The notes beneath the pieces were generated by a model, which ran no database searches, was not told the DNA's origin, and worked only from the letters and a program-made list of their open reading frames with translations. A stretch of 36,183 nt of DNA, taken from Minisyncoccia bacterium. Its GTDB lineage: Bacteria; Patescibacteriota; Minisyncoccia; Phycocordibacterales; JAKFXT01. Numbering within the stretch: the stretch's first letter is position 1; each line of letters begins with the position of its first letter. Position numbers and translations under genes: made by a program. The stretch lies in assembly GCA_041485465.1 (NCBI GenBank), contig JBGPJO010000006.1, positions 1-36,183 of the forward strand, given 5' to 3'. Of the stretch, positions 8,411-32,335 are shown one piece after another.

Positions 8411-8413
8411 ATT

Positions 8414-16898: not shown

Positions 16899-17996
16899 TC
16901 AGTGTCGGTTAATGCCGCCGATCAAATCATAGATGGGTAGTATCACGGCAAGAGCGACCGAGACGACCGCAATCCAGACGATAAAGAGAAGCATCGGTTC
17001 AAGAATGACACCGAGGTTTCTCGTCGTCGTATCTGACTTGTCTTCAAAAACAAGTCCGACTTTAAGGAGGACCTCTGAGAGATTCCCTGACTTGCTGCCT
17101 GTTATTATAAGTTGCTGAATCGGCGGCGGAATGAGTCGATCCGCTTTCTTAAATGAGGTAAAACTTTTTTCGAGTGAATTGCCGTCAGTCAAATTTTTTC
17201 GCATATGAGCATACAACTTTTTATATTGGTCGGCTTGGGTTGCTTCTTCAAGAGAGGAAAGGGCTTCGAGAATGGGAATACCGCTATCAAGAAGCCCACC
17301 GAGAATCGAACCGAATCGGGCAAGCTCAACTTCCTGAAGCAGACGGTTTACGCCAGGAATCGAGGAGAGAATGTATTCGCCGATTTTTTTAGTCGCAGAC
17401 AAAAAGAAAAGAATATAGAAAAGAAAGCCGAGTGCGACAAGGAAAAGAGGAATTGCGATACTGCCGTATTTTGAAAGAAAAGTTCCGAAAGAGAGAAGAA
17501 TTTTCGTAACAAGCGGCAATTTCAGCTTAAGTTGGCTGAAAAGCGTGGCAAGGCGGGGAAGAATAAACCATGAGACGCCAATACCGACGACAAGCGTAAC
17601 CCCGAAAACAAACCCGGGATACATAAGGGCTGAACGAACCTTTGACTTAAAGGTTCTCTGTTTCTCTTCCTGTTCGCCAAGCATCTTGAAATTTTTAACC
17701 AATTGACCGGTTTGTTCTCCGATCCGGATCAACGACGACACGCGTTTCGGAAAAAGACCGCTATTTTCGAAAACTGTCCACAGTGGCAATCCGAGACTAA
17801 GTTCTTCTTCCATTTTTCCGATAATGATTTTCATGCGCTTCGTTCGAACACTTTCTTTAATCGATTGAAGCGCACTTGACACATCAACTCCCGCCCCGAG
17901 CAGTAATCCCAGATTTTCCGTCAAATAATCAAGATCTTTTTCAATACCAAACCGTCCCAGAAATTTTAGGGGGGTCTTGTTATCCGTGCTTGCCAT
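16899..17996 (-). CDS. pilC: Type IV pilus/T2SS platform protein (PilC/GspF)
   Basis: LIRIGEQTGQL, ALMYP, LEPMLL...ILPIY; three TM segments. Confidence 0.92.
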   Translation of the reverse strand: MASTDNKTPLKFLGRFGIEKDLDYLTENLGLLLGAGVDVSSALQSIKESVRTKRMKIIIGKMEEELSLGLPLWTVFENSGLFPKRVSSLIRIGEQTGQLVKNFKMLGEQEEKQRTFKSKVRSALMYPGFVFGVTLVVGIGVSWFILPRLATLFSQLKLKLPLVTKILLSFGTFLSKYGSIAIPLFLVALGFLFYILFFLSATKKIGEYILSSIPGVNRLLQEVELARFGSILGGLLDSGIPILEALSSLEEATQADQYKKLYAHMRKNLTDGNSLEKSFTSFKKADRLIPPPIQQLIITGSKSGNLSEVLLKVGLVFEDKSDTTTRNLGVILEPMLLFIVWIAVVSVALAVILPIYDLIGGINRH

Positions 17997-18003
17997 GATA
18001 TCT

Positions 18004-19668
18004 CTATGATTCGGGTGCCGCGACCCGCAAGAGCTCTTCTAAAGTGGTGATGCCCCCCTTTACTTTCGAAAGGCCGTCTTCGAAGAGAGAACGGGCTCCC
18101 TCTTTTCTCGCAAGCTCTGAGACTGCCGATTTTGCCGGCCGCACGGCGATCAGTTCCTGCATTTCCGAAGAATTTCGAATCAATTCAAAGATGGCGATTC
18201 GCCCAAGATAGCCGGTGAAGTGGCACGCCTCGCATCCTTTCCCCCGATACAGCGTTATCTCTTGTTGATTTTTAAAATAAGGCGAAGCCTTCGGCATTTT
18301 TGCCTCAATTTCTTGTGTGCTCGCGGTGTAACTTATTTTGCAATGCCCACAGATTTTGCGTACCAGCCGCTGCGCAATAATGAGCTCGAGTGTTGATCCG
18401 AGAAGAAAGGGTTCAATGCCGATGTCGAGAAGCCGTGGAATGGTCGTTGCCGCATCATTCGCGTGGAACGTCGAAAAAAGCAGGTGCCCCGTCAACGCGG
18501 CGTTGACGGCGATTTCGGCGGTCTCGCTATCCCTGATTTCGCCGACAAGAACGATGTCGGGGTCTTGTCTCACAATTGAACGCAGGCCGCGCGCAAAAGT
18601 GAGATCCGTCTGGGGGTTTGTCTGCATCTGATTAATGCCCTCGATTTTATATTCAACCGGATCTTCAATGGTTGTGATATTTATTTCACTGCTATTTAAG
18701 GAATTAAGGAGGGCGTAGAGTGTCGTTGTTTTTCCGCTACCCGTCGGACCGGTAACCAAAATCATCCCAAACGGTTTCTTGGCCGCCTCCATGAGGATTT
18801 TCTGGTCATCAGTATTAAGCCCTAACGTGTCGGTCGTGAAGCTCGTTATATATTGCGACAAGAGCCGAAGCGCTACTTTCTCGCCATCTAAGGTTGGTGC
18901 GATCGAAACACGGATGTTAACCACTCCCTCATTTCGGGTATGTCTCAGAGAACCGTCTTGAGCCTTGAAGTGCTCGTCGATGGGTAGGTGAGCAAGAATT
19001 TTTATGCGGTTCAAGATATTCTCGTAATATTTTTTCGGTATTCTTGTCGCTTCAAGAAGCACGCCGTCAATCCGGAAACGGATTACCGTTTCTTTTTCTC
19101 TCGGTTCGAAGTGTATATCCGACGCATTGAGATGAACGGCATCCTCGATGATTTCATCAATTACTCCCGGGACGAAAGCACTTTTCGATTCGAACATCTC
19201 CGCAAAACGGACAGCGAGAGGTTTTTCATAGAGTTTTAACGCAAGGTCAATCGTTTCAGGAAGCGCATACTGAACAGTCACTTCCTTTCCCGTGAATATT
19301 TTTTGAAGTTCCGTGAGTAGGTTTTCAGCGAGTGGTTTATCGGAGGCGATCGTTACCAAGAGGGGATTTTCGGAAATGAAAATAACTCGGTAATCGCGAG
19401 CGACTTTTTCGGGGATTTTTTGAATCTGGTCGCGGCTTGTCGGCACGGAGTCTTTCTCCGCGTATTTGACGCCAAACGTCTCGGCAACCGATTGTCCCAA
19501 TAAATCCCTGGTAAGGAGACCGCGCTCAATGAGGGCTTCTGCAAGGGAAATTTTTTTATCCGCGGCTATTTTTTGGGCCGCCTCGAATTCTTCTGCTCCG
19601 AGGTAGCTCCCTTTAAGGAGGATATCTCTTAATTTTTCCTCTGGAATTAGTCCGTCAATTGGAGGCAT
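18004..19668 (-). CDS. pilB: Type IV pilus assembly ATPase (PilB/GspE)
   Basis: ASDIHFEP, Walker A GPTGSGKTT, TIEDPVE, RQDPDIVLVGEIRD, TGHLLFSTFH, tetracysteine motif. Confidence 0.93.
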   Translation of the reverse strand: MPPIDGLIPEEKLRDILLKGSYLGAEEFEAAQKIAADKKISLAEALIERGLLTRDLLGQSVAETFGVKYAEKDSVPTSRDQIQKIPEKVARDYRVIFISENPLLVTIASDKPLAENLLTELQKIFTGKEVTVQYALPETIDLALKLYEKPLAVRFAEMFESKSAFVPGVIDEIIEDAVHLNASDIHFEPREKETVIRFRIDGVLLEATRIPKKYYENILNRIKILAHLPIDEHFKAQDGSLRHTRNEGVVNIRVSIAPTLDGEKVALRLLSQYITSFTTDTLGLNTDDQKILMEAAKKPFGMILVTGPTGSGKTTTLYALLNSLNSSEINITTIEDPVEYKIEGINQMQTNPQTDLTFARGLRSIVRQDPDIVLVGEIRDSETAEIAVNAALTGHLLFSTFHANDAATTIPRLLDIGIEPFLLGSTLELIIAQRLVRKICGHCKISYTASTQEIEAKMPKASPYFKNQQEITLYRGKGCEACHFTGYLGRIAIFELIRNSSEMQELIAVRPAKSAVSELARKEGARSLFEDGLSKVKGGITTLEELLRVAAPES

Positions 19669-19779
19669 GAAAATTGTTTAATAAGTTTTCAATGCAAATG
19701 AAAAAGTTCTTTAGCCCGACGTGTTATTGTAATGATACTACAAAGATTTCTCCATACCTATAAGGGTTATTAGATTTTA

Positions 19780-19807
19780 TTGTCAGAGGATTCTTTTTTG
19801 TTAGAAT
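19780..19807 (+). promoter_or_regulatory. Putative promoter of tRNA-Val
   Basis: TTGTCA-N16-TAGAAT, 11 nt before the tRNA. Confidence 0.6.
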
Positions 19808-19818
19808 GCGGAAAACCT

Positions 19819-19891
19819 GCACCCTTAGCTCAGTTGGTAGAGCGTTCCCTTCACACGGGAAAGGTCATAGGTTCGAATCCTATAGGGTGCA
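19819..19891 (+). tRNA. tRNA-Val(CAC)
   Basis: Acceptor GCACCCT/AGGGTGC; anticodon arm TTCCC-TTCACAC-GGGAA; T-arm ATAGG-TTCGAAT-CCTAT. Confidence 0.95.
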
Positions 19892-19993
19892 CCGGTCTTT
19901 GCGAAAGTTTATTAAGTTTCAAAAGTGATGTAGAGTGGTGAGGTTTTGAAAAGGGAAGAGATGAGTATAATTATTTCCGATTGAGCGCTCAGT

Positions 19994-20064
19994 CGGGGTG
20001 TAGTACAGGGGTAGTATACACGCTTCGGGTGCGTGAGACCCGAGTTCGATTCTCGGCACCCCGA
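19994..20064 (+). tRNA. tRNA-Pro(CGG)
   Basis: Acceptor CGGGGTG/CACCCCG; anticodon arm CACGC-TTCGGGT-GCGTG; T-arm CCGAG-TTCGATT-CTCGG; TATAAT at 19966-19971. Confidence 0.93.
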
Positions 20065-20091
20065 CTAAGCGCTCAACCCCGTCTACATGAG

Positions 20092-20162
20092 GGGCCTATA
20101 GTTCAGTGGTAAAACGCCGCATTCGCATTGCGGAGGCGGGGGTTCGATTCCCCCTAGGTCCA
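20092..20162 (+). tRNA. tRNA-Ala(CGC)
   Basis: Acceptor GGGCCTA/TAGGTCC with G3:U70; anticodon arm CCGCA-TTCGCAT-TGCGG; T-arm GGGGG-TTCGATT-CCCCC. Confidence 0.93.
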
Positions 20163-20173
20163 CAAAAAAGACA

Positions 20174-20623
20174 TTATTTTACGATAACAGTACCGCGATC
20201 GTTAGGATTTATATGATTGTGGTATTTCCAAGCCCCAATCTTGGTAAATGTGTATTCGTAAATTCCATCTCCATGCGCCAAGGCTAGGTGCAGGAACAAG
20301 AATTTATCTTTCATATTTATTATTTCCTTTTGATCAAACCCGGGCAAATCGGTATGGGTGGGGTGGGGATCGGAAGCAACCCACATTGGCCGACCGGAAA
20401 CATTAATCCAGGCTACTGTAGTTCCAACCTTGACCGCTACTGTTTGAGGGTCAAATCCTTTTTCTGTATAGCGAACTTGAACTTGAGCGATTTGCGCGAC
20501 AGAAGTGGTTGCCGAAGAGCCATTTTCTAAACGCTGATAGTTCTTGTATGGCAACCATATCCCAATTACCCAAACAGCCGATAAAACACCGAGAATTAAA
20601 AGGATATTTCTCAAGTCTATCAT
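20174..20623 (-). CDS. Membrane-anchored cupredoxin-fold protein (His-rich, no Cys)
   Basis: N-terminal TM helix; GFDPQTVAVKVGTTVAWIN, WVASDPHPTH, YEYTFTKIGAWKYHNH...GTVIV; likely start ATG 20623. Confidence 0.85.
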   Translation of the reverse strand: MIDLRNILLILGVLSAVWVIGIWLPYKNYQRLENGSSATTSVAQIAQVQVRYTEKGFDPQTVAVKVGTTVAWINVSGRPMWVASDPHPTHTDLPGFDQKEIINMKDKFLFLHLALAHGDGIYEYTFTKIGAWKYHNHINPNDRGTVIVK

Positions 20624-20680
20624 CTGATAAGTATGTTTAACTCCATTCCATTTTATCATATAATTACACTAGTATTTAAA

Positions 20681-21499
20681 ATGAAGATCGATTTTATTTC
20701 AGATATCAATAAAGATCTTGGGGCTGATCTTAATTACCCTAAAGTTGACCGTTTTATACTTAAAGTGCTCTGGGGACATTTAGTGGTTTTTCTGCTTTTC
20801 ATTATTGCCGACGCCATTGTAAAACTACCGAGCATTTATCCGAGCCCATTCGGCTGGAGAGTAATTAGCTACAACGAAGCGTTCTATGCATTTTTGCTCG
20901 CCATAGTAATAACCCTTTTTCCAACACTTCTCATAAATATAATAAGAAACCGTTATTTCTGGCGGGTGATCGTAACGTTTGCATTGACAATTTACTCCTA
21001 CTTGCTTGTTTTTATTACCGGAGGATCAATCGAAGCGCATTTTCATTTCTTTATCATTGCCGCCCTGCTTGTCGTCTATGCTGATTGGAGGCTAGGCTGG
21101 ATTCTTTTGGTCTTAACAGGATTGCATCATGGCATTTTAAATTATTTTGAACCGGGGTGGGTCTATTTTTATGGTCGTAACGATTTTTCAGTGATCTCTC
21201 ATGCTTTGCCGGTCTTGGTGGCGGTAATCTTTACAACTATGCTTTGTAACAATAATAGAAATGGAATTATTTCACTTAAGGACAGTAAAAAAAGTCTTGA
21301 GACGAGAACTGCGGAGTTAGAGAAACTAAAAGGTAGTCTTGAGCATAGAGTGGGGGAGCAAACCACCGATCTTGAGAATAAAGTTTCCGAACTCCAAAAT
21401 ATTAACAAACACATGATTGATCGCGAGTTAAGAATGGCTGAATTGAAAAAAGAGAACGAAGAATTAAAGAAGAAAATTGAAAATTCTCCGAGACAGTGA
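20681..21499 (+). CDS. His-rich integral membrane sensor-like protein with C-terminal coiled coil and no enzymatic output domain
   Basis: About six TM segments with LWGH, IEAHFHFF, YADW, GLHHG, ISHA; ends in LEHRVGEQT...DRELRMAELKKE; ATG 20681. Confidence 0.8.
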   Translation: MKIDFISDINKDLGADLNYPKVDRFILKVLWGHLVVFLLFIIADAIVKLPSIYPSPFGWRVISYNEAFYAFLLAIVITLFPTLLINIIRNRYFWRVIVTFALTIYSYLLVFITGGSIEAHFHFFIIAALLVVYADWRLGWILLVLTGLHHGILNYFEPGWVYFYGRNDFSVISHALPVLVAVIFTTMLCNNNRNGIISLKDSKKSLETRTAELEKLKGSLEHRVGEQTTDLENKVSELQNINKHMIDRELRMAELKKENEELKKKIENSPRQ

Positions 21500-23781
21500 T
21501 TATGTCTCAAGAAGCACAAATTATTGATGTAAAACAGGTCGCTCTTGGCACAGTCGAATTGGTTTTGGGGCTTAGCAAAGAATTCGATTTTCAAGCCGGC
21601 CAATATATTCGAGTTATAGTGCCGCGTCTTATTTCTGAAGACCCGCGCGGCAACAGCCGCGATTTTTCAATTGCTTCTTCTCCCCGTAATGAAAACAAGC
21701 TGTCTATTGCTTTTCGAATATCAGAAAGCCCTTTTAAGCAGAGTATTTTAAGATCACAGCCTGGCACAAAAGTTACTGTTGAGGGCCCTTTTGGCAATTT
21801 TATATTACCGGCAGATACTCAAAAGTCCGTTGTCTTTTTAGCTGGCGGTATCGGTATCACTCCATTTTTGAGCATGATCCGCTTTGTCACGGAAAAAAAA
21901 TTGCCCCACAAGATAAAATTGCTTTATCTGAATAAAAACCCCGAGAGTGGCGCATATTTGTCGGAATTGAAAAAACTTGAAAAGCAAAATCCAAATTTCG
22001 TTCTAAATGAAAAATTCGGACTGCTCGATCGAGAATTTATCGAAAAAAGTGTCAATACCACAGGGAACATCTGGTACATCGCCGGCCCGCCCTCGATGGC
22101 GAAAGAGGCGAGAATAATACTTGACCAACTGGGAATCACCAATGACGATATTTTGATTGAGGAATTTACGGGCTACCCCTTTCCATCAACAGACGGCAAA
22201 GAGCTCCCGGCGATCACGCCCGAGCATTCAATCGCCGATATTGAAGCGATATTTCAAGCCTTAAATAAATCCGTTCTTGTTTCGGAGACTGACACCAACG
22301 GCACCATTATTTATGCCAATGATAAGTTTGTGGAAACCTCAAAATACAGTCTCGAGGAGTTAATCGGACAAAATCACAGGATTCTTAAATCAGGTTTCCA
22401 CAAAGCGTCATTCTATGAGGATTTGTGGAAGACTATATCAGAGGGAAAAGTATGGAGAGGCGAGATAAAAAATAAAGCAAAAGACGGCACCTTTTACTGG
22501 GTTGATGCCAATATTGCTCCGGTTCTAGATAAAAACGGGAAATCAGTGAAATACATTGCTATCAGGTTTTTAATCACCGAACGCAAAATGATGGAGGAAA
22601 AGCTAAAAACTCAAATGGAAGATACTGAAAAAACAAAATTAGCCATTCTCAATCTGCTTGAAGATATTGAAGAAGAAAAAGAAGGCGTGGAGCGCAAAGT
22701 TGTTTTGCGCACCCGAGAGCTTGAAGTGGAACGGTCCCGTCTCCTCGCTTCCATCAACAGTCTCTCTTTTGGTTTTATTATTGCTGACCTGAATCATCGT
22801 ATTCTTCTTAAGAATAATGCGATGTTGGAGCTTTTTGGCGCAGAGAGTAAAGAGATTATCTCGATTGAAAATATCTCGAGTCTTTTTGGGAAAGAATTTG
22901 ACATTAAAGGAGAAGCGGAGCGGTGCGTGAAAGGGGGAAAGGTCTGTGAGATAAAAGAAATAGTTTTCGGCAAGAAATTTCTCCGTGGCATTATTGCTCC
23001 GATTGTGATGGCGCACGACCATGGCGAGATCATTGGTTATGTGTTTTTGCTCGAAGACATCACTGAAGCAAAAGTGATGGAAAGGAGCCGCGAAGAATTT
23101 TTTGCTGTTGCGTCTCATGAACTGCGCACGCCGCTGACCGCTATCCGCGGAAATGCCGAAATGATTCTTGATATGTATGCCGACAAGGTGACCGATAAAG
23201 ACATGAAAGAGATGCTTGTAGATATTGATACATCAAGTGTGCGGCTCATCGAGATCGTAAACGATTTTCTTGAAGTTTCTCGTCTTGAACAGGGAAGGAT
23301 TCAAATCAAGAAAGAAGTATTCAATATCTCCGAAGTGATAGAGAGAGTGATTAGGAATTTAGAGGGGAGCGCGAAGAAAAGGGGACTCCCCCTTCTTTAT
23401 GTAGTGCCTAAAGCGCCTCTTACCAATGTTATTGCCGATAAAAACAGAGTTGAACAGATAATGGTGAACTTAATCAGCAATGCTATAAAATTTACTGAAA
23501 AAGGGAGTGTCAGTATCAATGTGGAGTCAATTCCCAACTTTTTGAAAATTCAAGTCATTGACACCGGTATTGGTATCTCGCCCCATAATCAAACTCTACT
23601 TTTCAGAAAATTCCAGCAGGCGGGAGAAAAAATTCTTGCACGGGACATTACTCAAGGAACGGGTCTCGGTCTCTATATCTCTCAACTTCTGGTATCGAGT
23701 ATGGGAGGAACCATTGCTCTTGAAAAAAGTACTTTTGGTGAGGGCAGTACATTTACATTTACCATTCCGATTGCCACATGA
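21496..23781 (+). CDS. FNR-like FAD/NAD(P)H oxidoreductase-PAS-PAS-histidine kinase fusion
   Basis: FQAGQY, RDFSIAS, EGPFG, AGGIGITP, YIAGPP, EEF; PAS YANDKF...ELIGQNHRILKSG...KNKAKDGTFYWV; H-box SHELRTPL; NLISNAIKFT, DTGIGI, GTGLGL, GEGSTF. Confidence 0.93.
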   Translation: MIMSQEAQIIDVKQVALGTVELVLGLSKEFDFQAGQYIRVIVPRLISEDPRGNSRDFSIASSPRNENKLSIAFRISESPFKQSILRSQPGTKVTVEGPFGNFILPADTQKSVVFLAGGIGITPFLSMIRFVTEKKLPHKIKLLYLNKNPESGAYLSELKKLEKQNPNFVLNEKFGLLDREFIEKSVNTTGNIWYIAGPPSMAKEARIILDQLGITNDDILIEEFTGYPFPSTDGKELPAITPEHSIADIEAIFQALNKSVLVSETDTNGTIIYANDKFVETSKYSLEELIGQNHRILKSGFHKASFYEDLWKTISEGKVWRGEIKNKAKDGTFYWVDANIAPVLDKNGKSVKYIAIRFLITERKMMEEKLKTQMEDTEKTKLAILNLLEDIEEEKEGVERKVVLRTRELEVERSRLLASINSLSFGFIIADLNHRILLKNNAMLELFGAESKEIISIENISSLFGKEFDIKGEAERCVKGGKVCEIKEIVFGKKFLRGIIAPIVMAHDHGEIIGYVFLLEDITEAKVMERSREEFFAVASHELRTPLTAIRGNAEMILDMYADKVTDKDMKEMLVDIDTSSVRLIEIVNDFLEVSRLEQGRIQIKKEVFNISEVIERVIRNLEGSAKKRGLPLLYVVPKAPLTNVIADKNRVEQIMVNLISNAIKFTEKGSVSINVESIPNFLKIQVIDTGIGISPHNQTLLFRKFQQAGEKILARDITQGTGLGLYISQLLVSSMGGTIALEKSTFGEGSTFTFTIPIAT

Positions 23782-23849
23782 TAAACTTTAATCCAAAGAG
23801 TCTTGCGCTGTCGCACCTTACTCTACTAGTAGAGCCAAATATCTAATTT

Positions 23850-24242
23850 ATGAAAAAAATATACCTCGTCGAGGATGATACATATGTAAGCCGAATGTAT
23901 GAAAGGGCATTTCGTTTCAGCGGCTACGAGGTTGAGGTTGTGGGCGACGGTGAGGTGGCCCTCAAACAACTTACAGAAATGAAGAATCTCCCCTCAGCAA
24001 TTGTACTTGATGCCATGATACCGAATATGAGCGGTCTTGATGTACTGCGTAATATAAAAAAAGATTCTCGTCTCAAAAATATTCCCGTAATCATCCTGAC
24101 CAATTCTTTTCTGGAAGAAAACGCAGAACAATTTATATCTTCGGGGGCCGATTTATATCTGGTTAAAATAGAGAATACCCAAAAAGACACTGTCCAAAAG
24201 ATCCATGATCTGATAGAGAATTACAAGGGCCAGAAAAAATAG
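23850..24242 (+). CDS. Single-domain response regulator (CheY-like)
   Basis: LVEDD, VLDAMIP phosphoacceptor, ILTN, YLVK. Confidence 0.9.
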   Translation: MKKIYLVEDDTYVSRMYERAFRFSGYEVEVVGDGEVALKQLTEMKNLPSAIVLDAMIPNMSGLDVLRNIKKDSRLKNIPVIILTNSFLEENAEQFISSGADLYLVKIENTQKDTVQKIHDLIENYKGQKK

Positions 24243-24277
24243 AAAATAACTGATTAATTTCTCCAAAAAGAAACCTC

Positions 24278-24676
24278 ATGCCTCCTATTTTTATAGCTGA
24301 AGACGATCCTCTGATGGGGAGGATGTACGAGCGAGCATTCCGCTTAAATGGTTATGATTTAAAAATGGCGTTCGACGGAGAACAGGCGCTCTCGATGCTA
24401 CTCGCAGCAAACCCGAAGCCCTCTGTCATCATTCTCGATGTGATGATGCCGAAGATGAGCGGTTTTGACGTTCTTAAAAAAATAAAGGAAGATGCGGATC
24501 TTAAAAATATTCCAGTCATTCTTCTCACGAATCTCGCGGGCCAAGAGGACGCCCAAAAAGGGATCTCGATGGGTGCGCTCATGTATCTTGTGAAGAGCGA
24601 GTACAACCCAAAGCAAATTGTCGATACGATTAAAAAAGTGCTTGAGACAACGCCCGCTCCTCAAGGAGGCGCATAA
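24278..24676 (+). CDS. Single-domain response regulator (CheY-like)
   Basis: IAEDD, ILDVMMPKMSG, LLTNL, YLVKS. Confidence 0.92.
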   Translation: MPPIFIAEDDPLMGRMYERAFRLNGYDLKMAFDGEQALSMLLAANPKPSVIILDVMMPKMSGFDVLKKIKEDADLKNIPVILLTNLAGQEDAQKGISMGALMYLVKSEYNPKQIVDTIKKVLETTPAPQGGA

Positions 24677-24697
24677 AAGCTCCGCTCACTGTTTCTT

Positions 24698-25813
24698 TTA
24701 GCGCACGGATTGGTAGCCGCCCTTTACTCCGCTTTTTGAGAGGATGACTTGCCAGAGTTCTATGCGTCTCGCGCGAAACGTGCCGGCGCAGGAGAGAAGG
24801 TAGTATTTCCACATCCTGTAGAAGTGCTCAGAATATTTTTTTGAAAGCGTTGGCCAGGCATGGTTGAAATTTTCAAACCAAGTCATAAGTGTCTTGTCAT
24901 AGTCGGCGCCAAAATTATGCCAGTCTTCCATGACGAAGATACCTTCGATCGCTTTTCCAATTTGAGGAATCGATGGAAGCATCCCATTGGGAAAGATGTA
25001 TTTCGAAATCCATGGATCGCCGGCATGTCGCGAGAGATTATCACCAATAGTGTGGAGAAGAAAAAGGCCGTCGTTCTTGAGGAGTTTTGCGGCAATTTCC
25101 ATGTAGGTGCGGTAGTTTTTAAGACCAACATGCTCAAACATACCGAGTGACACTATATGATCAAACTGGCCTTCGACCTTCCGGTAATCTTGAAGCCTGA
25201 TTTCAACGGGCAATCTATTTGCAAGTTCTTTCCCGAGCAGTGCTTGTTCTTTCGAAACGGTTATACCGAGAACTTTTGCTCCGTACTTCTCGGCGGCGAA
25301 AATAGCAAAACTACCCCAGCCGCAACCGATATCAAGAACATAATCTCCTTTCTTCAGTCCTATTTTACGGCAGACGAGGTCAAGTTTATTTTCTTGCGCC
25401 TGATCAAGTGTTTTCGCATTCTTCCAATAGCCGCAGGTATAGGTGAGGTGCGTATCAAGCATCGCTTTATATAAGTCGTTCCCAATATCGTAATGGCGTT
25501 CTCCGATCTGAAACGCGCGAGTTTCGTCCTGCAGGTTAAAAAATAATGCCTTGAGGTATTGAAATAAAGCTTCAAGAGATGTCACTTTCTCATCAAGGCG
25601 CGCCTCTAGAATTTTTTCAAAAAATTGATCAAGTGATGGCGTATCCCACCACCCCTCCATATAGGTTTCTCCAAGAGCAAGAGAGGCCCCTTGGAACATT
25701 CGCGAGTAGAATCTTTTATCATGGACCTCTATATCCCAAGGTTCTTTGCCGCCGACGGTGACGCCAGCAATCGAAAGCAGGTTTTTTACCCATGTTTGTG
25801 CACTTGTTTCCAT
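24698..25813 (-). CDS. cfa: Cyclopropane-fatty-acyl-phospholipid synthase
   Basis: LGETYMEGWWD, HYDIGNDLY, YTCGYW, VLDIGCGWG, SLGMFEHVG, KYIFPNG, RMWKYYLLSCAGTFRAR. Confidence 0.93.
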   Translation of the reverse strand: METSAQTWVKNLLSIAGVTVGGKEPWDIEVHDKRFYSRMFQGASLALGETYMEGWWDTPSLDQFFEKILEARLDEKVTSLEALFQYLKALFFNLQDETRAFQIGERHYDIGNDLYKAMLDTHLTYTCGYWKNAKTLDQAQENKLDLVCRKIGLKKGDYVLDIGCGWGSFAIFAAEKYGAKVLGITVSKEQALLGKELANRLPVEIRLQDYRKVEGQFDHIVSLGMFEHVGLKNYRTYMEIAAKLLKNDGLFLLHTIGDNLSRHAGDPWISKYIFPNGMLPSIPQIGKAIEGIFVMEDWHNFGADYDKTLMTWFENFNHAWPTLSKKYSEHFYRMWKYYLLSCAGTFRARRIELWQVILSKSGVKGGYQSVR

Positions 25814-26900: not shown

Positions 26901-29900
26901 TTACGCGTTTCCATGAAGGCGTCTTACTTTGGGGGACCGGTAGAAAAGGACGGGTATGAAAATGAGGGAGAGCACCATCGAGAAGGTCAGTCCGAACATG
27001 ATCGTAAAGGCGATCGGACCCCAGAGGGCGGACGCGCCGGCAAGCGGCACCATGCCGACAACCGTTGTTACGGTGGTAAGAACAATCGGACGAAGTCTCG
27101 TTGCGGCGGATTCAACGACGATATCAATCAAAGATTCGGTTTTGTGATCGGCGAGGTAGTGAACCATTGAATCGAGAAGAATGATAGCGTGATTGATAAT
27201 AATGCCGGCAAGCGCGATAAAGCCGAGTATCGAGGGGAATGAAAGCGGCTTGAACGAAATGGCAAGTCCGGTCATAACGCCGATCAGGGAAAGCGGAACA
27301 ATTACAATGAGGTAGCTGGTATACCTGAATGAATTGAAGACAAGAACAAGGATACCGAGCATTAAGACAAGGCCTGCGACAAGCGCTATGAACATTTCGC
27401 GGAAGGATTTGTTGACGTCGTCATTTTCTCCGGCAAAAGCAACCGTTACACCATCGGGGATATGGAGCTCGGATTTCTTTTTATCAAAGGCGCTATTGAT
27501 TTCGGGCGCGGTTACGCCCACTTTGAGGTCGCTTGAAACGGTGATGATCCGCTTTTTGTCTTCATGATTAATAACGGCGTTACTCTTTTGAATGGTCGCA
27601 GTAATAACAGAACCAAGAAGCACGGGACCATTTTGAGTCTCAATCGGAATTTGCCGTAACGCGTCGATTGTCGCCTCGGTCGTGGTGTCAGGATTGGTAT
27701 CGCCGTTTAAATTAAGTTTGACGACAACATCGATGTCTTTGCCGACCGTTTTTATGGTCGTTGCGATCGTGCCATTAACCGCACTACGCAGTGTCTGCGC
27801 GATAACCTGCGGATTAAGGCCGAGTTCTGAGGCTTTGGCCCGATCGACGGTGAGCGCGAACTCGGTACCCCCGTTCGTATTTGAGGTATTGATATTAATT
27901 GTGCCGGGAATATTCTGAAGTATATGTTCGACGTTTATCGCCGTCTGGTCGAGATCGCCGAAATCTTCCCCGGTGATTTTAATCAAAACGGGTGCACCCG
28001 AGGGCGGGCCATTATTAGGCTCCTCGACCCTAATATCCGCTGACTTAATCGTTGAGACTTCTTTGCGGATTGCCTCAACCATCTCAGCGCTTGTGCGCGT
28101 GCGGTCTTTTTTATTGATAAGATTAATAGTGATATTTGCGATTTTTGCGCCGCTTGCAGGGGTAGTGCTAAAAGAAGAACTTTGCCCGACCGTCGTCACG
28201 AACGAAGCTATTTCAGGGAATTTCTTACGGTCATAGAGGATTTCTTCGATTTGCCGTATCGCTTGATCGGTATAGGCAAGTGGCGTACCTTCAGGCTTTT
28301 GAAGTTCTATATAGAGATAATCAATATTATCTTGCGGGAAAAACGTCACCTTGACGATCCCGACTATTGGAAACGAAAGGGTAATAACGAATAAGATGCC
28401 GACTACCCACAAAAACCGTTTCTGGACGCGTTTATTCTCGAGAATGTTTCTGAGAAATTTCTTATACCATTCCCGGACGATATCATTGTAGCTCTCCTGG
28501 AGCGCCTCAAAGCGGTTGAGGGAGCGCTTGGTGAAAAGTATGGCAATTAAGGGAACGATGCCGAGCGCGACAAAGATTGAAGCGAGCAGTACGAAAATGA
28601 TGGTAAAGGGAATACTTGCAATAAATTGCCCGGTAATGCCCGAGATGAAAAAGAGCGGCACGAAAACGGCAACCGTTGTCATTGTTCCGGCAAACAGAGG
28701 CCATGAGTATTCCCGTAGTGAGGCAATCGCCGCTTCCCGCGCGTCCCCGAATTTTTTATAGCGGGTATGTATCGCTTCCGTCATGACAATGCCGGAGTCA
28801 ACGAGAATACCGATTGCAAGAATAAGAGAAAAAAGAGAAACGAAGTTGATGCTGTTGCCCGAATATAAAAGGCCGACGAATGCCATCAGGAATGAAAGGG
28901 GAATGGCAAGCCCAGCAACCACCGATTCACGCCAGCCGATCGTGAGAAAGAGGACGAGCATGACGAGGAGAACGGTCTCAAGACCGACGCGGGAGAGTTC
29001 GGTGAGATCTTTTTGAACTAAGTCGCCGCGATCGAATGATATAACAACCTGGCTTCCCGAAAGAGTTGTCTTTTTAAGGTCGTTTAATTTACTTTTTACA
29101 TTGCTTGAAATTTTTGTGACATCACCGCCGCTTCGTTTAAAAACGGAAAGAGTGAGTGCTTGTTCGGACGGTACGCCCTTCAAAGAAACACGAGAGAAGG
29201 TCGTCGCTTTTTCAAGTCCGTCCGAGACAAGGGCGACATCGCGGACGTAAATAGGCGTGCCATTTTTAGTGGTAAGGACGATATCGCCGATTTCTGAAGG
29301 ATTGTCGATTGAGCCGTTGAACTTCACGGCGTAATCGATACCGTCAACGGTGATTGAGCCGATCGGAAGGGATGCGTTTGCGGCAGAAAGGGCTGAAATA
29401 ACATCGACAAGGCGAATACCGTAGGTATCGAGAGCTTCTTTACGGACAACAACTTGCGCTTGCCGGTCGCGAACGCCGGACACCTCGACTCTTGATACGC
29501 CCCCAACCGTTTTCAGCTCTTCTTTAAGAGTATCCCCAAGTCTGACAAGGTCGGGGGGCGTGATGTCGGACGAAATTGAGACGATCAGAATTGGCTGATC
29601 GCTGAAACTGACTTTGGTGACAATCGGACTGTTCGCTTCTTTCGGCAGGTCCGGCTTTGCCCGGTCAACAGCATCTTTAAGATCGTTGATTGATTTATCG
29701 ATATCGGCGCTTGCCAAAAACTGAACCGAGATAATGGAAACACCCTCACGCGAACTTGAAGTCAGTTTATCGAGATTGTCGACATTGTTGACCTCATCTT
29801 CTATTTTATTGGTGATCAGTTTTTCCGTGTCTTCAGCGGAAGCTCCGGGAAGGGTTGTGGTAACAATTCCAATCGGCACTTTCACTTCAGGAGCCGACTC

Positions 29901-30005
29901 CTTCGGAATAGTGAGAAGCGCATAGCTTCCGGAAACGATGAGCGCCGTGATGAGGATATAGCTGAAAGCCCTTTTGTCTATGAAGAATGTCCAAAACGGG
30001 GTCAT
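26901..30005 (-). CDS. RND efflux transporter permease (AcrB/SwrC family)
   Basis: 1034 aa, two repeats; PGASAE, LAIGILVDSGIV, TTVAVFVP, FFPQD, TRLRPIVLT. Confidence 0.93.
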   Translation of the reverse strand: MTPFWTFFIDKRAFSYILITALIVSGSYALLTIPKESAPEVKVPIGIVTTTLPGASAEDTEKLITNKIEDEVNNVDNLDKLTSSSREGVSIISVQFLASADIDKSINDLKDAVDRAKPDLPKEANSPIVTKVSFSDQPILIVSISSDITPPDLVRLGDTLKEELKTVGGVSRVEVSGVRDRQAQVVVRKEALDTYGIRLVDVISALSAANASLPIGSITVDGIDYAVKFNGSIDNPSEIGDIVLTTKNGTPIYVRDVALVSDGLEKATTFSRVSLKGVPSEQALTLSVFKRSGGDVTKISSNVKSKLNDLKKTTLSGSQVVISFDRGDLVQKDLTELSRVGLETVLLVMLVLFLTIGWRESVVAGLAIPLSFLMAFVGLLYSGNSINFVSLFSLILAIGILVDSGIVMTEAIHTRYKKFGDAREAAIASLREYSWPLFAGTMTTVAVFVPLFFISGITGQFIASIPFTIIFVLLASIFVALGIVPLIAILFTKRSLNRFEALQESYNDIVREWYKKFLRNILENKRVQKRFLWVVGILFVITLSFPIVGIVKVTFFPQDNIDYLYIELQKPEGTPLAYTDQAIRQIEEILYDRKKFPEIASFVTTVGQSSSFSTTPASGAKIANITINLINKKDRTRTSAEMVEAIRKEVSTIKSADIRVEEPNNGPPSGAPVLIKITGEDFGDLDQTAINVEHILQNIPGTININTSNTNGGTEFALTVDRAKASELGLNPQVIAQTLRSAVNGTIATTIKTVGKDIDVVVKLNLNGDTNPDTTTEATIDALRQIPIETQNGPVLLGSVITATIQKSNAVINHEDKKRIITVSSDLKVGVTAPEINSAFDKKKSELHIPDGVTVAFAGENDDVNKSFREMFIALVAGLVLMLGILVLVFNSFRYTSYLIVIVPLSLIGVMTGLAISFKPLSFPSILGFIALAGIIINHAIILLDSMVHYLADHKTESLIDIVVESAATRLRPIVLTTVTTVVGMVPLAGASALWGPIAFTIMFGLTFSMVLSLIFIPVLFYRSPKVRRLHGNA

Positions 30006-31603
30006 TATTGCTTTATCGTTACAGTGTCGCCCGCCTTAAGACCCCGAGCATCGGTCACGATAACCATCTCTCCTGTTACTCCGTTTAGAATAACGATGCT
30101 CTCTCCAAGAAGTGCTCCGGTCGTGACGGGGTTTCCCTTTAAGACACCGCCTTCAATGGTGAACACTTCCGGTCCCTCGGTTGCAATCTTGATTGCCGAA
30201 ATCGGGAGACTGATGAGCGCTCGCGCAGTTTCGACAGGCGCTTTTCTTTCGATCGCTACCTGGATTGATTCTCCGTTTACAAGATTTTTTGCATCTCCCG
30301 TGATGCCAATCCTCACTTCTATTTTTTTGGTATTGGGATCAAGTGCCGGGGCGACTCTTGTTACTACCCCAGAAATACCGTCATTGATCAAAGTGGCGGC
30401 TCCGACTGCAATTTCACGGGCGTCTCCTTCGGTGATGTACGCCCTGATTTCAAGCGCGCCATTATTTGAAACCACGGCGACTTCTTGAAACGAAGTAACA
30501 AAATCACCTCGCTCAAGAGAAAAGCTGTTAAGCGTACCGGAGATGGGACTCCTAATAATTGTTTTTTCGAGATTTACTTCGGCAAGTTGGAGCGAGGCTT
30601 GTGCCTGTTCCACGGCGGCGTTTGAGGTCGTCTCTTGCCCCGCCCCCGATTGCTTCTGAGCGATGTCGTATTGGGCTTGTTTTGCTGTAAGATTGTCTTT
30701 TGCGGCGGAGAGTGAAGCGAGAGAGGCGCTGAGCGAGGTTCGCACCCCGGTAACCGTTACTTTATAAGCGTCGATTGTCGCCTGAGGAATCGTCTGGCTT
30801 TGAGCGCTTTGGTTTAATCCGAGAGCAATGTCATCGGCAAGGGCTTTGACATAGCGAAGTTCGGTGTCAGCCTGATTGATCTCTTTTTGAAGATCGCTGG
30901 TAACAGTAATGGAGTTTCTCCGCGAAGTTTCGGCTTTCCATATATCTCCGGTCTTCAGTCGTTCGAAATTTATATTGAGGAGCAGTTGATTGTTTGAGAT
31001 TAAAATAAGGAATTTAGGATCGGAGAGGCTGGCATCCGAAAACATGGGATCAATTTTTGTCCGGATGCCGTCATCAACGCTGTCGTACGCGCTCAAGAGA
31101 GTGTTAATCGTATTTACTTTCGCTTGGGTAAGAATATCGGCCTGATTTAGCCCTGAAATTAGGGAGATACCAGCTGAAGCCTCAGCGCTCTTCAAGAGAG
31201 CTTCAGCCTGCGCAACTCCCGCTCTTTCGCGGCTGTTTTCGATTTCGGCGATAATACCACCTGCCGGAACGAAATCGCCGAGCTTGTGATAGACGCTTAC
31301 GATCTCACCCGATCCTTCAGCTCGTATGGTTGCTTCGGAAACCGACGTCACCGTGCCGATTAAGGGAAGGGGACTTCGTTTTGAAGCGAGTTCTAAGACG
31401 GAAGCGGTTGTTACTTGGTGTTCATTTTGACTGAAATCATCAAGTACCTGTCCTTTGCTGTGAAAAATTTGATATCCTCCTATCCCGAGGAGGACGACAA
31501 CTACCAATCCAATAATGCCCTTTATCGTCGTCATTTTTCGAACGTCTAAAATACTCTTTAAAACAACCCCGCCCGAAGAAAGAATTTTTTTTATAAATTG
31601 CAT
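30005..31603 (-). CDS. RND adaptor (membrane fusion protein) with long alpha-hairpin
   Basis: N-terminal TM; lipoyl halves GEIVSVYHKLGDFV and IRSPISG...RGDFV; GLKAGDTV; 1-nt overlap with the RND gene. Confidence 0.88.
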   Translation of the reverse strand: MQFIKKILSSGGVVLKSILDVRKMTTIKGIIGLVVVVLLGIGGYQIFHSKGQVLDDFSQNEHQVTTASVLELASKRSPLPLIGTVTSVSEATIRAEGSGEIVSVYHKLGDFVPAGGIIAEIENSRERAGVAQAEALLKSAEASAGISLISGLNQADILTQAKVNTINTLLSAYDSVDDGIRTKIDPMFSDASLSDPKFLILISNNQLLLNINFERLKTGDIWKAETSRRNSITVTSDLQKEINQADTELRYVKALADDIALGLNQSAQSQTIPQATIDAYKVTVTGVRTSLSASLASLSAAKDNLTAKQAQYDIAQKQSGAGQETTSNAAVEQAQASLQLAEVNLEKTIIRSPISGTLNSFSLERGDFVTSFQEVAVVSNNGALEIRAYITEGDAREIAVGAATLINDGISGVVTRVAPALDPNTKKIEVRIGITGDAKNLVNGESIQVAIERKAPVETARALISLPISAIKIATEGPEVFTIEGGVLKGNPVTTGALLGESIVILNGVTGEMVIVTDARGLKAGDTVTIKQ

Positions 31604-31750
31604 GATCTTAAATGCCTATACAGGGCTCTCTCTTTATACTAATTTGATAAATCCAAATTAACATGAAAACACGTTTACGTCAATAGTTTCCTGTTGCCTA
31701 ATATTTTTCCACAGTGGAAGTACAATTTTATTTGTTACACTCTGATGACG

Positions 31751-32335
31751 ATGGTAAAACGAAAGATCCTTATTCTCTTGGGATCGGAGGACAAAGAAAC
31801 GACTGCTGGCATGTTTGCCGAAGCTTATGAACGTGGAGCGAGAGCGCGGGGACATGACGTGCACCGAATAAATATAGGTGATTTAAGATTTGATCCACTT
31901 CTTCATAAAGGCTACAAGGTCATTCAAGAACTCGAACCGGATTTGAAAAAATTTCAGGAAGAGGTCAGATGGTCGGAACACCTCGTCGTAATTTATCCTA
32001 ATTGGTGGTCAACAATGCCCGCGATTCTGAAAGGCTTGTTTGATCGGGCATGGCTTCCGGGATTCGCGTTTCATTTTAGGAAAGACAAAGCGTATCTTTG
32101 GGACAAGCTTTTGAAAGGGCGCTCCGCTCGCGTCATGATTACGATGAACGCCGCACCCTGGCTTGAGAGAATTGCGATAGGGGATTACACGAATGAAATC
32201 AGAAATGGCATTTTAAAATTTGCTGGATTTTCACCGGTGCGGCTTTCGACATTTGGTCCCGTTGAGAGAGCGACAGATAGCCAGCGACAAGCGTGGCTCA
32301 AGAAAGTGGAACAGACGGGGAGAGACGGAGATTAA
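31751..32335 (+). CDS. NAD(P)H-dependent oxidoreductase, flavodoxin-like fold (MdaB/NQO family)
   Basis: FDPLLHKGY...LEPDL, YPNWWSTMPAILKGLFDR, PGFAF, LLKGRSAR; start 31745 or 31751. Confidence 0.88.
   Translation: MVKRKILILLGSEDKETTAGMFAEAYERGARARGHDVHRINIGDLRFDPLLHKGYKVIQELEPDLKKFQEEVRWSEHLVVIYPNWWSTMPAILKGLFDRAWLPGFAFHFRKDKAYLWDKLLKGRSARVMITMNAAPWLERIAIGDYTNEIRNGILKFAGFSPVRLSTFGPVERATDSQRQAWLKKVEQTGRDGD

Follow-up and report, generated by a model that had tools for sequence, protein, structure and literature searches.

Aer of Escherichia coli, NifL of Azotobacter vinelandii and MmoS of Methylococcus capsulatus are the textbook redox sensors built on a flavin-PAS domain, with FAD held by PAS1 in NifL and by PAS-A in MmoS. 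Reduction of one such flavin by foreign enzymes has reportedly been seen: Macheroux et al. 1998 (Biochem J) are said to have found that E. coli flavohaemoprotein and spinach FNR can transfer electrons from NADH to the flavin of NifL in vitro, a heterologous pairing with no known physiological link. Our literature search on the reduction of NifL by flavohaemoprotein found nothing. In the passages drawn on here, PMC9668731 and PMC13232288 place the Aer and MmoS flavins near -290 mV; the same portion of PMC13232288, a 2026 preprint, attributes reduction of the MmoS, Aer and NifL flavins to respiratory-chain components or unidentified donors, and describes the natural reductant of Aer as unidentified.

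FNR-family reductases are known to serve partners of other kinds. Excerpts of PMC11031084 describe the dehydrogenase domain of SpNOX as about 220 residues long, with a gating aromatic near its C-terminus, and report that the isolated domain is a flavin reductase driven by NADH or NADPH; the reductase is fused to its partner in SpNOX and separate in Fre-MsrQ. In both, the partner is a haem membrane domain, and the product is superoxide or a repaired protein. RsbQ-RsbP of Bacillus subtilis offers a precedent of another sort, since the part of PMC3183031 used here presents it as a two-part sensing module of enzyme and PAS domain, occurring fused or in neighbouring genes and with various outputs. 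Its enzyme is an alpha/beta hydrolase and its output a phosphatase, and no redox chemistry is involved.

Here, we describe a histidine kinase encoded in a window of 36,183 nucleotides (the whole stretch of DNA analysed) from an ultra-small member of the Patescibacteria (CPR), whose genome assembly is 646 kb long and 97.5% complete. Whereas none of MmoS, Aer and NifL carries a reductase, this family has a putative NAD(P)H reductase either joined to the flavin-PAS sensor in one chain or encoded next door. In contrast to SpNOX and Fre-MsrQ, the reductase is paired with a soluble predicted flavin-PAS sensor of a kinase, and the product would be a signal. As in RsbQ-RsbP, an accessory enzyme would serve a PAS domain, the pair is found both fused and split, and the outputs vary. 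The reaction ascribed to NifL and its heterologous reductases is here proposed to occur in cis, between gene-encoded partners. The initial annotation knew of no characterised kinase with the reductase-PAS architecture, and in the literature we searched we likewise found neither such a kinase nor a paper describing one of this design.

Domain organization of the kinase

A single open reading frame on the + strand (21496..23781, GTG start) encodes 761 amino acids; an alternative ATG at 21502 gives a 759-residue form, the same as protein database entry P0003. The product is a soluble cytoplasmic two-component histidine kinase in which an FNR-family FAD/NAD(P)H module is followed by a flexible linker, a PAS domain of MmoS/Aer/NifL type, a coiled coil, a second PAS domain, HisKA and HATPase. 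Pfam and AlphaFold2 agree with the initial annotation on this order, and its reading of a protein free of transmembrane segments also stands: no membrane segment was found in the kinase, the peak 19-residue Kyte-Doolittle window (1.73, residues 110-128) coinciding with the nucleotide-binding fold's first strand and helix, which are buried. In an alignment of 50 fused relatives, the source of the conservation counts given here, 46-50 sequences retain the residues of the flavin and NAD(P)H motifs, the PAS pocket and the kinase (45 for the aromatic at position 222). In NCBIfam, neither the kinase and its reductase module nor the upstream protein and the receivers scored above the cut-off of any family. 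The NifL model TIGR02938 scores 120.4 bits, against an equivalog cut-off of 242.45, and matches residues 257-372 only; the kinase is therefore not a NifL, and we ruled out that identity for the protein as a whole.

The FNR-family module (residues 1-225; 21502..22176, + strand) consists of a beta-barrel flavin subdomain and then a Rossmann-type NAD(P)H subdomain. Its motifs lie where they had been placed from the sequence: R53-D-F-S56 (21658), G95-P-F-G98 (21784), A114-G-G-I-G-I-T-P121 (21841), A194-G-P-P (22081) and E220-E-F222-T-G-Y225 (EEF at 22159). Pfam NAD_binding_1 matches residues 114-205 with 42.7 bits (cut-off 22), and FAD_binding_6 matches residues 8-102 with 18.7 bits, slightly below its cut-off of 21.1. 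The latter model passes in relatives (L114, 38.5 bits; L115, 31.6; a stand-alone paralogue, 23.3). The weak score is compensated by a confident fold. AlphaFold2 models residues 1-226 with pLDDT 95.6 and pTM 0.92, a barrel of six strands and one helix leading into a Rossmann-type subdomain of five strands, as the FNR superfamily requires. Foldseek matched this model to 324 PDB chains at E <= 0.001, the best of which are all FNR-family reductases (TM 0.77-0.87): the SpNOX dehydrogenase domain comes first (8qq1_F, TM 0.82/0.85), and NqrF, BenC, flavohaemoglobin and Fre come next. A PDB sequence search with the module likewise returned SpNOX (8qq5, E 2.1e-15), so that this domain (8QQ1/8QQ5) is the best match in both structure and sequence, at an identity to SpNOX- and Fre-type structures of only 26-29% in Foldseek.

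The flavin motif of FNR proteins is defined as R-x-Y-S/T. The module fits it with R53-D-F55-S56, in which Phe replaces Tyr; R53 is kept in 49 of the 50 relatives, F55 in 48, and Ser or Thr at position 56 in all. On the nucleotide side, the GPxG turn is present in 50/50 and is followed by the G-G-x-G-x-x-P motif (A114 50/50, G115 49/50, G116 50/50, G118 50/50, P121 46/50). Near the C-terminus, F or Y occupies position 222 in 45/50, and Y225 is kept in 48/50. The Cys-Gly motif of the fourth strand is lacking. As had been noted from the AGPP in place of CGPP, the kinase has A194-G195, with G195 invariant (50/50) and position 194 occupied by Ala in 23 relatives, Cys in 16, Val in 8 and Ser in 3. 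To our knowledge, this cysteine is not universal in the FNR superfamily, so Ala194 is compatible with membership. Judged from motifs and modeled fold, the module would bind flavin and oxidize NAD(P)H. We also considered a short N144-G195 spacing as a mark of all sensor-linked modules. It measures 50-55 residues in 54/54 fused kinases, but the spacing is long in 7 of the 10 forms without a kinase and short in 5 of the 21 stand-alone forms, and we dropped the idea, the spacing being a lineage trait and not a rule.

PAS1 (residues 244-357; 22231..22572, + strand) is predicted to bind FAD. Its PAS fold in AlphaFold2 spans residues 244-357, and Pfam PAS families cover residues 249-364. The likeness to Aer and NifL suggested by the initial annotation was borne out by a PDB sequence search (3EWK, E 2e-42, with 1.6e-33 for its first PAS; 8DIK, 2.8e-22; 2GJ3, 6.3e-17). 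In the relevant passages of PMC9668731, the flavin-pocket residues H53, N85 and R115 of Aer correspond to H132, N164 and R195 of MmoS. In our alignment their equivalents are H292 (kept in 48/50), N324 (49/50) and R355 (46/50), and PAS1 thus resembles the PAS domains of MmoS, Aer and NifL in both sequence and pocket His, Asn and Arg. The equivalent of Aer T18 is S257, a variable position at which Thr (13), Ser (11), Ala (9), Asn (7) and Gly (5) are commonest. As in MmoS and NifL, PAS1 precedes a second PAS domain and a kinase-type transmitter.

Signals from PAS1 would pass through a helical connector (residues 359-419; 22576..22758, + strand), which the full-length AlphaFold2 model forms from coiled-coil helices at 359-384 and 390-419 with a break at 383-390, and then through PAS2 (residues 424-519; 22771..23058, + strand), delimited in the same model. 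No cofactor is indicated for PAS2, whose only PDB sequence matches are weak and fall on the cytoplasmic PAS of WalK (7duc, E 0.00098; 4mn5, 0.0017). The DHp/HisKA helices (residues 521-596; 23062..23289, + strand; Pfam HisKA at 532-600, 68.1 bits) carry the phospho-acceptor His539, encoded by the CAT codon at 23116-23118 to which the initial annotation had assigned it; this H-box residue is present in 50/50 relatives. The catalytic ATP-binding domain (HATPase_c, residues 605-757; 23314..23772, + strand; Pfam match at 648-760, 85.8 bits) keeps N660 (50/50), D687 (49/50), G689 (50/50) and G721 (50/50). The H, N, G1 and G2 boxes of a HisKA-type kinase are thus all present, and two receiver genes lie directly downstream.

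Between the reductase and PAS1 lies a flexible linker (residues 223-243; 22168..22230, + strand), which shares its first three residues with the end of the FNR module. It is 21 residues long with pLDDT <50, and in the 50 relatives its length ranges from 19 to 57 residues (median 35). The initial annotation looked to structure prediction for the distance between reductase and PAS flavin. The reductase module folds with confidence; the full-length AlphaFold2 model has a pTM of 0.42, gives no confidence to the mutual orientation of reductase and PAS1, and predicts no interface. Complex prediction of reductase 1-226 against PAS1 244-362 with two FAD molecules gave a score of 0.00 in two runs without controls, and counts neither way. 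ESM Atlas, queried with residues 1-373, returned generic PAS clusters only (0.90-0.91) and no reductase-PAS cluster, and is uninformative.

The lack of a predicted interface and the variable linker would suit a kinase with two independent inputs. The FNR module would then be an allosteric sensor of NAD(P)H/NAD(P)+, with or without flavin, and PAS1 would use another donor, no electrons passing between them. Against this, a long disordered tether is poorly suited to transmit a conformational change, and the flavin-side motifs are as conserved as the nucleotide-side motifs (R53, S/T56 and F/Y222, counted above).

Gene fusion and fission in the reductase-PAS family

The junction between reductase and PAS1 is genuine. 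The initial annotation had marked 22150-22300 as the stretch in need of read support; contigs with a match of at least 99%, free of indels and mismatches, bridge the junction (X3, 21800-22429; X4, 22033-22281; X1, 22148-22700). They come from three metagenome runs, one of which is possibly the source sample. In addition, relatives at 54-56% identity share a continuous frame across 98-99% of the length. Adjacent split genes do occur among relatives, and a mistake in assembly or sequencing could in principle fuse such a pair, but given the bridging contigs and the shared frame we consider such an artefact vanishingly improbable here.

The fusion also recurs in many genomes. Reductase, PAS and kinase occur together in 52 of the 120 database clusters listed, and one match spans the reductase into PAS1 in 40 of the 150 50%-identity clusters listed. 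In five related loci the pair is split, with a reductase gene of 232-250 aa immediately 5′ of a PAS kinase gene; three of these loci show an overlap between the two genes, and two show a gap of 7-20 bases. The reductase and PAS parts are linked by gene fusion and fission. Elsewhere the reductase-PAS cassette is found with hybrid kinases, with GAF, or without a kinase. A quick tree places 67 modules linked to sensors in a grouping apart from 22 stand-alone and membrane-fused modules.

In L001, which encodes a close PAS-PAS-kinase relative (55% identical), no reductase gene was found within 5 kb upstream of the kinase, and the sole module match in the genome is a 543-aa open frame, probably of membrane-fused type. 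The reductase is hence not indispensable for this kinase type. Conversely, P0362 joins a reductase to a HAMP-PAS kinase in which no PAS is adjacent to the module. Both cases could be taken to favor independent inputs, whereas a separate module gene, as in the five split loci, suits an enzyme acting in trans more than an allosteric domain working within the chain. On balance, we judge independent inputs to be unlikely.

Among 28 newly scanned relatives, ten combine reductase and PAS without a kinase, which leaves the module as the sole enzyme of the protein. This raises the possibility that the reductase is an output: PAS1 would regulate its activity (free-flavin reduction, or formation of peroxide or superoxide), and the present protein would have two functions, as enzyme and as kinase. 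Among solved structures its nearest relative is the dehydrogenase domain of SpNOX, indeed a flavin reductase within an oxidase. The effector domains of PAS proteins, however, normally lie C-terminal to the sensor, and in L003 the kinase-less form directly precedes a separate PAS kinase, which suggests a signaling role. An output function for the module thus appears improbable.

Our search for related loci, which returned 80, used patterns made from PAS1 motifs, and most of the loci are therefore PAS kinases of other phyla that lack a reductase. The module is carried by L002, L004, L005, L006, L007 and L069 only, and that of L003 was seen only by tblastn. The taxon labels of two of these loci read 'Candidatus Acidoferrum' (L004, genome of about 1.1 Mb) and 'Bdellovibrionales' (L006, about 1.0 Mb).

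A candidate NAD(P)H-to-kinase pathway and its host

Two genes for receiver-only response regulators follow the kinase on the + strand, one of 130 aa (23850..24242; Pfam Response_reg, 69.3 bits) and one of 132 aa (24278..24676; 78.6 bits). In 8 of 11 related loci, too, the gene after the kinase encodes a receiver. On the other side, the stop of a gene for a multi-pass membrane-domain protein (20633..21499, + strand) overlaps the kinase start. Its product has conserved histidines in the membrane domain and, at its C-terminus, a coiled coil, lacks an output domain, and may supply the kinase with a second input. The gene is only tentatively a part of the kinase system, and its membrane domain has no conserved counterpart upstream of relatives. 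Type IV pilus genes neighbor the kinase locus, with the PilB ATPase encoded at 18004-19668. Scans of 19500-25000 found 14 promoter-like sites, where shuffled sequences gave 11.0 +/- 2.7, and 4 terminator-like sites, where they gave 5.5 +/- 2.5; neither is in excess of chance, so the operon structure is based on gene spacing alone.

We lean, by a little, toward a kinase whose tethered reductase passes electrons to the PAS flavin and which reports NAD(P)H against oxidants to the two receivers, possibly controlling type IV pilus genes. The analysis establishes the order of the domains, their intact motifs and folds, the recurrence of the design and its occurrence as fused or split genes; we infer the binding of flavin, the passage of electrons between domains, the direction in which the kinase responds, and its target. 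The kinase input would be a two-part redox cassette. The FNR-family module, hanging on its 21-residue tether beside PAS1, would bind flavin and oxidize NAD(P)H, and would hand reducing equivalents to the FAD held by PAS1 itself, from which oxygen or other oxidants would remove them. Fed by the reductase and drained by oxidants, the PAS flavin would weigh, through its redox state, the supply of NAD(P)H against the load of oxidants. This state would be relayed through the coiled coil and PAS2 to the DHp helices, where it would set autophosphorylation of His539 and transfer to the two receivers encoded downstream. The receivers would probably act through protein contact, possibly on the type IV pilus machinery. 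By analogy with the -290 mV flavins of Aer and MmoS and the flavin-reductase activity of the SpNOX domain, the chemistry is consistent with such a transfer.

It is also possible that the link between module and PAS1 is less direct. The module might reduce free FAD or FMN, which would then reduce, or exchange with, the PAS-bound flavin, and contact between the domains would not be needed. The closest structures, the SpNOX dehydrogenase domain and Fre-like reductases, use flavin as a co-substrate, and the lack of a predicted reductase-PAS1 interface agrees with this as well. Arguing the other way are the ends of the stand-alone relatives. In plant-type FNR, a terminal stacking aromatic retains the flavin as a cofactor, and 22 of the 26 stand-alone relatives end in a similar aromatic-x-G-Y. 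Moreover, our searches of the host genome (97.5% complete) found neither the FAD synthetase nor the flavokinase family; with flavin synthesis apparently lacking, a pool of free flavin is doubtful. We therefore think a flavin shuttle or loader quite unlikely. The same result counts against direct transfer within the cassette, which is still the reading we prefer.

The host genome also bears on the source of electrons. Our searches turned up neither a complex I antiporter subunit nor a haem-copper oxidase or cytochrome bd, and the usual respiratory donors are thus not in evidence. An NAD(P)H reductase fused to, or neighboring, a flavin-PAS domain names a candidate donor for sensors of this type, and the design may show how they obtain electrons in cells without a respiratory chain. 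A broader proposal, which we put forward tentatively and with less conviction than direct transfer itself, is that, where bacteria have no respiratory chain, a dedicated NAD(P)H reductase, tethered or adjacent, forms with its PAS domain a self-contained comparator of NAD(P)H and oxygen. Its receivers would steer type IV pili and hence attachment to, or movement on, host cells, and the upstream membrane protein would add a second signal through its coiled coil.

In a soluble single chain such as this one, both flavin-to-flavin transfer and control of the kinase can be measured directly. If the proposed mechanism is true, the protein would be a genetically encoded converter of NAD(P)H into phosphorylation, of use as an engineering part. 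Since the 646-kb genome was found to encode just three HisKA kinases, this one included, it is likely a main energy-state readout of these host-dependent, non-respiring bacteria.

The fused kinase and its relatives

One open frame (21496..23781, +; 761 aa) encodes the kinase; in the ORF listing of the window it begins with GTG. An ATG at 21502 gives a 759-aa form, the same as the public protein P0003, and residues are numbered here from that ATG. The motifs named in the initial annotation lie where it placed them (RDFS, 21658; GPFG, 21784; AGGIGITP, 21841; AGPP, 22081; EEF, 22159), as does the phospho-acceptor histidine at 23116, a CAT codon for His539. Pfam assigns NAD_binding_1 to residues 114–205 (42.7 bits, cut-off 22), several PAS models to 249–364, HisKA to 532–600 and HATPase_c to 648–760; FAD_binding_6, at residues 8–102, scores 18.7 bits, slightly below its cut-off of 21.1. 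In a full-length AlphaFold2 model built from an alignment of 50 relatives (mean pLDDT 86.2), a two-subdomain reductase (residues 1–222, pLDDT >90) is followed by a linker (223–243, pLDDT <50), PAS1 (244–357), two long helices (359–384 and 390–419), PAS2 (424–519), DHp helices (521–596) and an ATP-binding domain (605–757). The coiled coil and second PAS domain noted earlier are thus both present. With a pTM as low as 0.42, the model supports the fold of each domain but does not predict how the domains are placed relative to one another. As also noted, the protein lacks a transmembrane segment: its top 19-residue hydrophobic window (1.73) falls on the strand and helix bearing GGIGITP, which are buried.

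This architecture is real, intact and recurrent, not an artefact. Contigs from four sediment-metagenome runs, among which may be the source sample of the window, lie over 21800–22700 at ≥99% identity with zero base differences, insertions, deletions or joints. The initial annotation had staked the fusion on its junction and its recurrence. The junction is bridged by contigs X3 (21800–22429), X4 (22033–22281) and X1 (22148–22700), from three metagenome runs, and in a 90%-identity protein collection the reductase is found in at least 60 of the 120 matches listed, 52 of these also with HisKA and HATPase_c. The source-given names of the matches listed are all of Patescibacteria type (Kaiserbacteria, Wolfebacteria, Paceibacterota, Saccharimonadales). 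In a 50%-identity library, one stretch runs from the reductase into PAS1 in at least 40 of 150 proteins listed. Pfam scans of 28 listed proteins (27 spanning reductase and PAS1, and P0362, in which the best stretch is confined to the module) gave 12 kinases, 5 hybrid kinases with a receiver, 10 proteins without a kinase and 1 that runs into an epimerase domain. P0312 is a reductase–PAS protein continuing into a polysaccharide-synthesis epimerase domain; P0362 has no PAS adjoining its module, which is followed by ~240 unassigned residues, HAMP, PAS and kinase.

Fusion is one of several arrangements. Of 401 genomes sampled evenly from the phylum, 190 gave some match to the query, nearly all of these matches being stand-alone modules of ~240 aa or membrane-fused forms, whose ~510-aa open frames are common in the sample. 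Among the matches listed, beyond which lie 111 weaker ones, a fused sensor occurs only in the window's own genome (G000), G219 and G364. A split form is found at five loci (L004, L006, L007, L069 and, from genome G054, L113), where a reductase gene of 232–250 aa lies directly 5′ of a PAS kinase gene of 526–685 aa, overlapping it at three loci and 7–20 bases away at two. At a further locus, L003, a 408-aa reductase–PAS protein precedes a separate membrane PAS kinase. In a quick tree of 97 modules, inferred by maximum likelihood, 67 sensor-linked modules fall on one side (support 84; inner group of 57, 97), and 22 stand-alone and membrane-fused modules, including both G000 paralogues, on the other (support 91); the fused kinases from G219 and G364 fall outside, on long branches. 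Literature searches found no publication describing a reductase–PAS–kinase protein, and the kinase belongs to no named family beyond those of its parts.

Gene neighbourhood and host genome

The kinase start and the stop of the gene upstream of it (20633..21499, +) overlap; the product of that upstream gene has five hydrophobic segments, with a coiled coil at its C-terminus, and no match in Pfam or NCBIfam. Its membrane domain belongs to a family of 195 database matches in which histidines are almost invariant (E-x-H-F-H-F-F, H-H and another H further on). Since this domain is elsewhere fused to PAS, HisKA-HATPase, GGDEF or GAF, it seems to be a so far undescribed membrane sensor domain. The upstream protein resembles its counterparts at L002 and L003 in only its last ~45 residues. 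Two receiver-only genes lie 3′ of the kinase (23850..24242 and 24278..24676), and a receiver gene is similarly placed in 8 of 11 loci compared (L001, L002, which has two, L003, L004, L006, L113, L114 and L115). Divergently upstream is a type IV pilus cluster with a PilB-type ATPase (18004..19668), PilC (16899..17996) and pilin genes carrying the N-methylation motif. Of 12 places searched (the window and 11 loci), three have pilin motifs close to the kinase: the window, L006 and L114. The association is suggestive only.

Other features of the window were also observed. A serine recombinase (Resolvase and Recombinase domains; 2–928, −) lies at the window edge, next to several ORFs without a family match, and may mark a mobile element boundary. 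In each of two tandem ~640-aa proteins (6509–10345, +), ~320 unassigned N-terminal residues precede a C-terminal half with a GH130 mannoside-phosphorylase domain; phosphomannomutase-like and mannose-6-phosphate isomerase genes lie 5′ of the pair. An AcrB-type RND transporter (1034 aa) and HlyD-type adaptor (532 aa) are encoded at 26901–31603 (−) in this 646-kb genome, adjoined by a Flavodoxin_2-type NAD(P)H oxidoreductase (31694–32335). A leucyl-tRNA synthetase frame running off the window end (34507–36183, +) has NUDIX (residues 391–481) and RecG_dom3_C (residues 493–553) matches behind its editing domain, and may represent an enzyme domain nested in an aminoacyl-tRNA synthetase.

G000 (646,295 bases, 14 contigs, 97.5% complete) has three HisKA matches and five receiver matches, the latter all in open frames of 131–268 aa; two share one 268-aa frame on contig 10, beside a kinase in a 295-aa frame. 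The receiver query turned up no receiver that has a DNA-binding output. Besides the kinase's own module, G000 encodes a 238-aa stand-alone form and a 505-aa fusion with an RnfD/NqrB-like membrane domain. The fusion, with the ApbE flavin transferase and the FMN_bind protein that adjoin it (contig 11, stretch L112, 2444–5344, −), looks like a minimal membrane flavin electron-transfer unit. Searches of the genome for complex I antiporter subunits, haem-copper oxidase and cytochrome bd gave no match. It encodes several flavoproteins, and neither the FAD synthetase family (PF06574) nor the flavokinase family (PF01687) was found in it; its flavins may be scavenged. Near the ApbE cluster, a 137-aa nucleotidyltransferase (L112:1035-1448, −) matches only general adenylyl/cytidylyl-transferase models.

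The reductase module and PAS1

Folded alone from an alignment of 26 modules, the reductase gives a pLDDT of 95.6 and a pTM of 0.92 (AlphaFold2). Foldseek matches it to 324 PDB chains at E ≤ 0.001, led by the dehydrogenase domain of Streptococcus pneumoniae NADPH oxidase (SpNOX; 8qq1_F, TM 0.82/0.85, 27% identity) and then by FAD domains of NqrF, benzoate dioxygenase reductase, flavohaemoglobins, cytochrome b5 reductases and E. coli Fre (1qfj, 0.79); a PDB sequence search agrees (8qq5, E 2.1e-15; 1krh, E 1.8e-14). The SpNOX domain takes NADH or NADPH as donor, handles flavin as a co-substrate and is gated by a C-terminal Phe (PMC11031084). Across 50 fused relatives, the flavin motif is kept (R53, 49; F55, 48; S/T56, 50), as are G95, P96 and G98 (50 each), the nucleotide motif (A114, 50; G115, 49; G116, 50; G118, 50; P121, 46) and G195 (50). 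The AGPP noted in place of CGPP is borne out and is a family polymorphism: of the residues at position 194, 23 are Ala, 16 Cys, 8 Val and 3 Ser. The module's C-terminal end is also kept (F or Y at 222, 45/50; G224, 49/50; Y225, 48/50). Aromatic-x-G-Y is the exact C-terminus of 22 of 26 stand-alone or split modules, a count that, like alignment A2, leaves out the stand-alone module L107 of genome G154, flagged as unpublished; stand-alone relatives are 231–258 aa long. This implies that Y225 is the former C-terminus of a free enzyme, with the kinase linker directly behind it.

The initial annotation likened PAS1 to Aer and NifL, and a PDB sequence search agrees (Aer PAS 8DIK, E 2.8e-22; NifL PAS1 2GJ3, E 6.3e-17). 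For residues 244–366 the MmoS sensor's first PAS is a better match still (3EWK, E 2e-42; 1.6e-33 for that domain), and LOV domains score far lower. The flavin-pocket residues H53, N85, R115 and T18 of Aer, equivalent to MmoS H132, N164, R195 and T103 (PMC9668731), align with H292, N324, R355 and S257 of the kinase. Among 50 relatives, H292 is kept in 48, N324 in 49 and R355 in 46, and the S257 position is variable. For PAS2 the only matches are weak ones (E about 0.001), to the cytoplasmic PAS of WalK, and nothing points to a cofactor.

Proposed coupling of the reductase to the kinase

The parsimonious, and most likely, reading is that the reductase feeds PAS1. The tethered module would oxidise NAD(P)H and reduce the PAS1 flavin, oxidants would re-oxidise that flavin, and its redox state would reach His539 by way of the coiled coil and PAS2. 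Folds, motifs and the pattern of fusion and fission are the observed part of this reading. The linker, 19–57 residues long in 50 relatives (median 35), behaves as a tether, not a fixed joint. The potential of NAD(P)H lies near −320 mV. The Aer and MmoS flavins are both at about −290 mV (PMC9668731), and the two potentials fit this reading. PMC13232288 gives as unidentified the species that couples Aer to the electron transport chain, and names NADH dehydrogenase as a candidate. A literature search on NifL reduction returned nothing.

Three main rivals have to be weighed: the module and PAS1 might be two independent inputs, the reductase might be a regulated output, or a free-flavin shuttle might operate. 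Three observations count against feeding of PAS1 by the reductase. The PAS–PAS–kinase relative at L001, which shares 55% identity from PAS1 onwards, lacks a nearby reductase, and its genome has a single module match, within a 543-aa frame. No reductase–PAS1 interface is predicted in the full-length AlphaFold2 model. The searches for FAD synthetase and flavokinase found no flavin biosynthesis in G000. For the preferred reading, in which the reductase feeds PAS1, we infer that flavin is bound and electrons are transferred, as well as the sign of the kinase response and the target of signalling. The kinase is a variant among flavin-PAS redox kinases, with a plausible mechanism that is directly testable.
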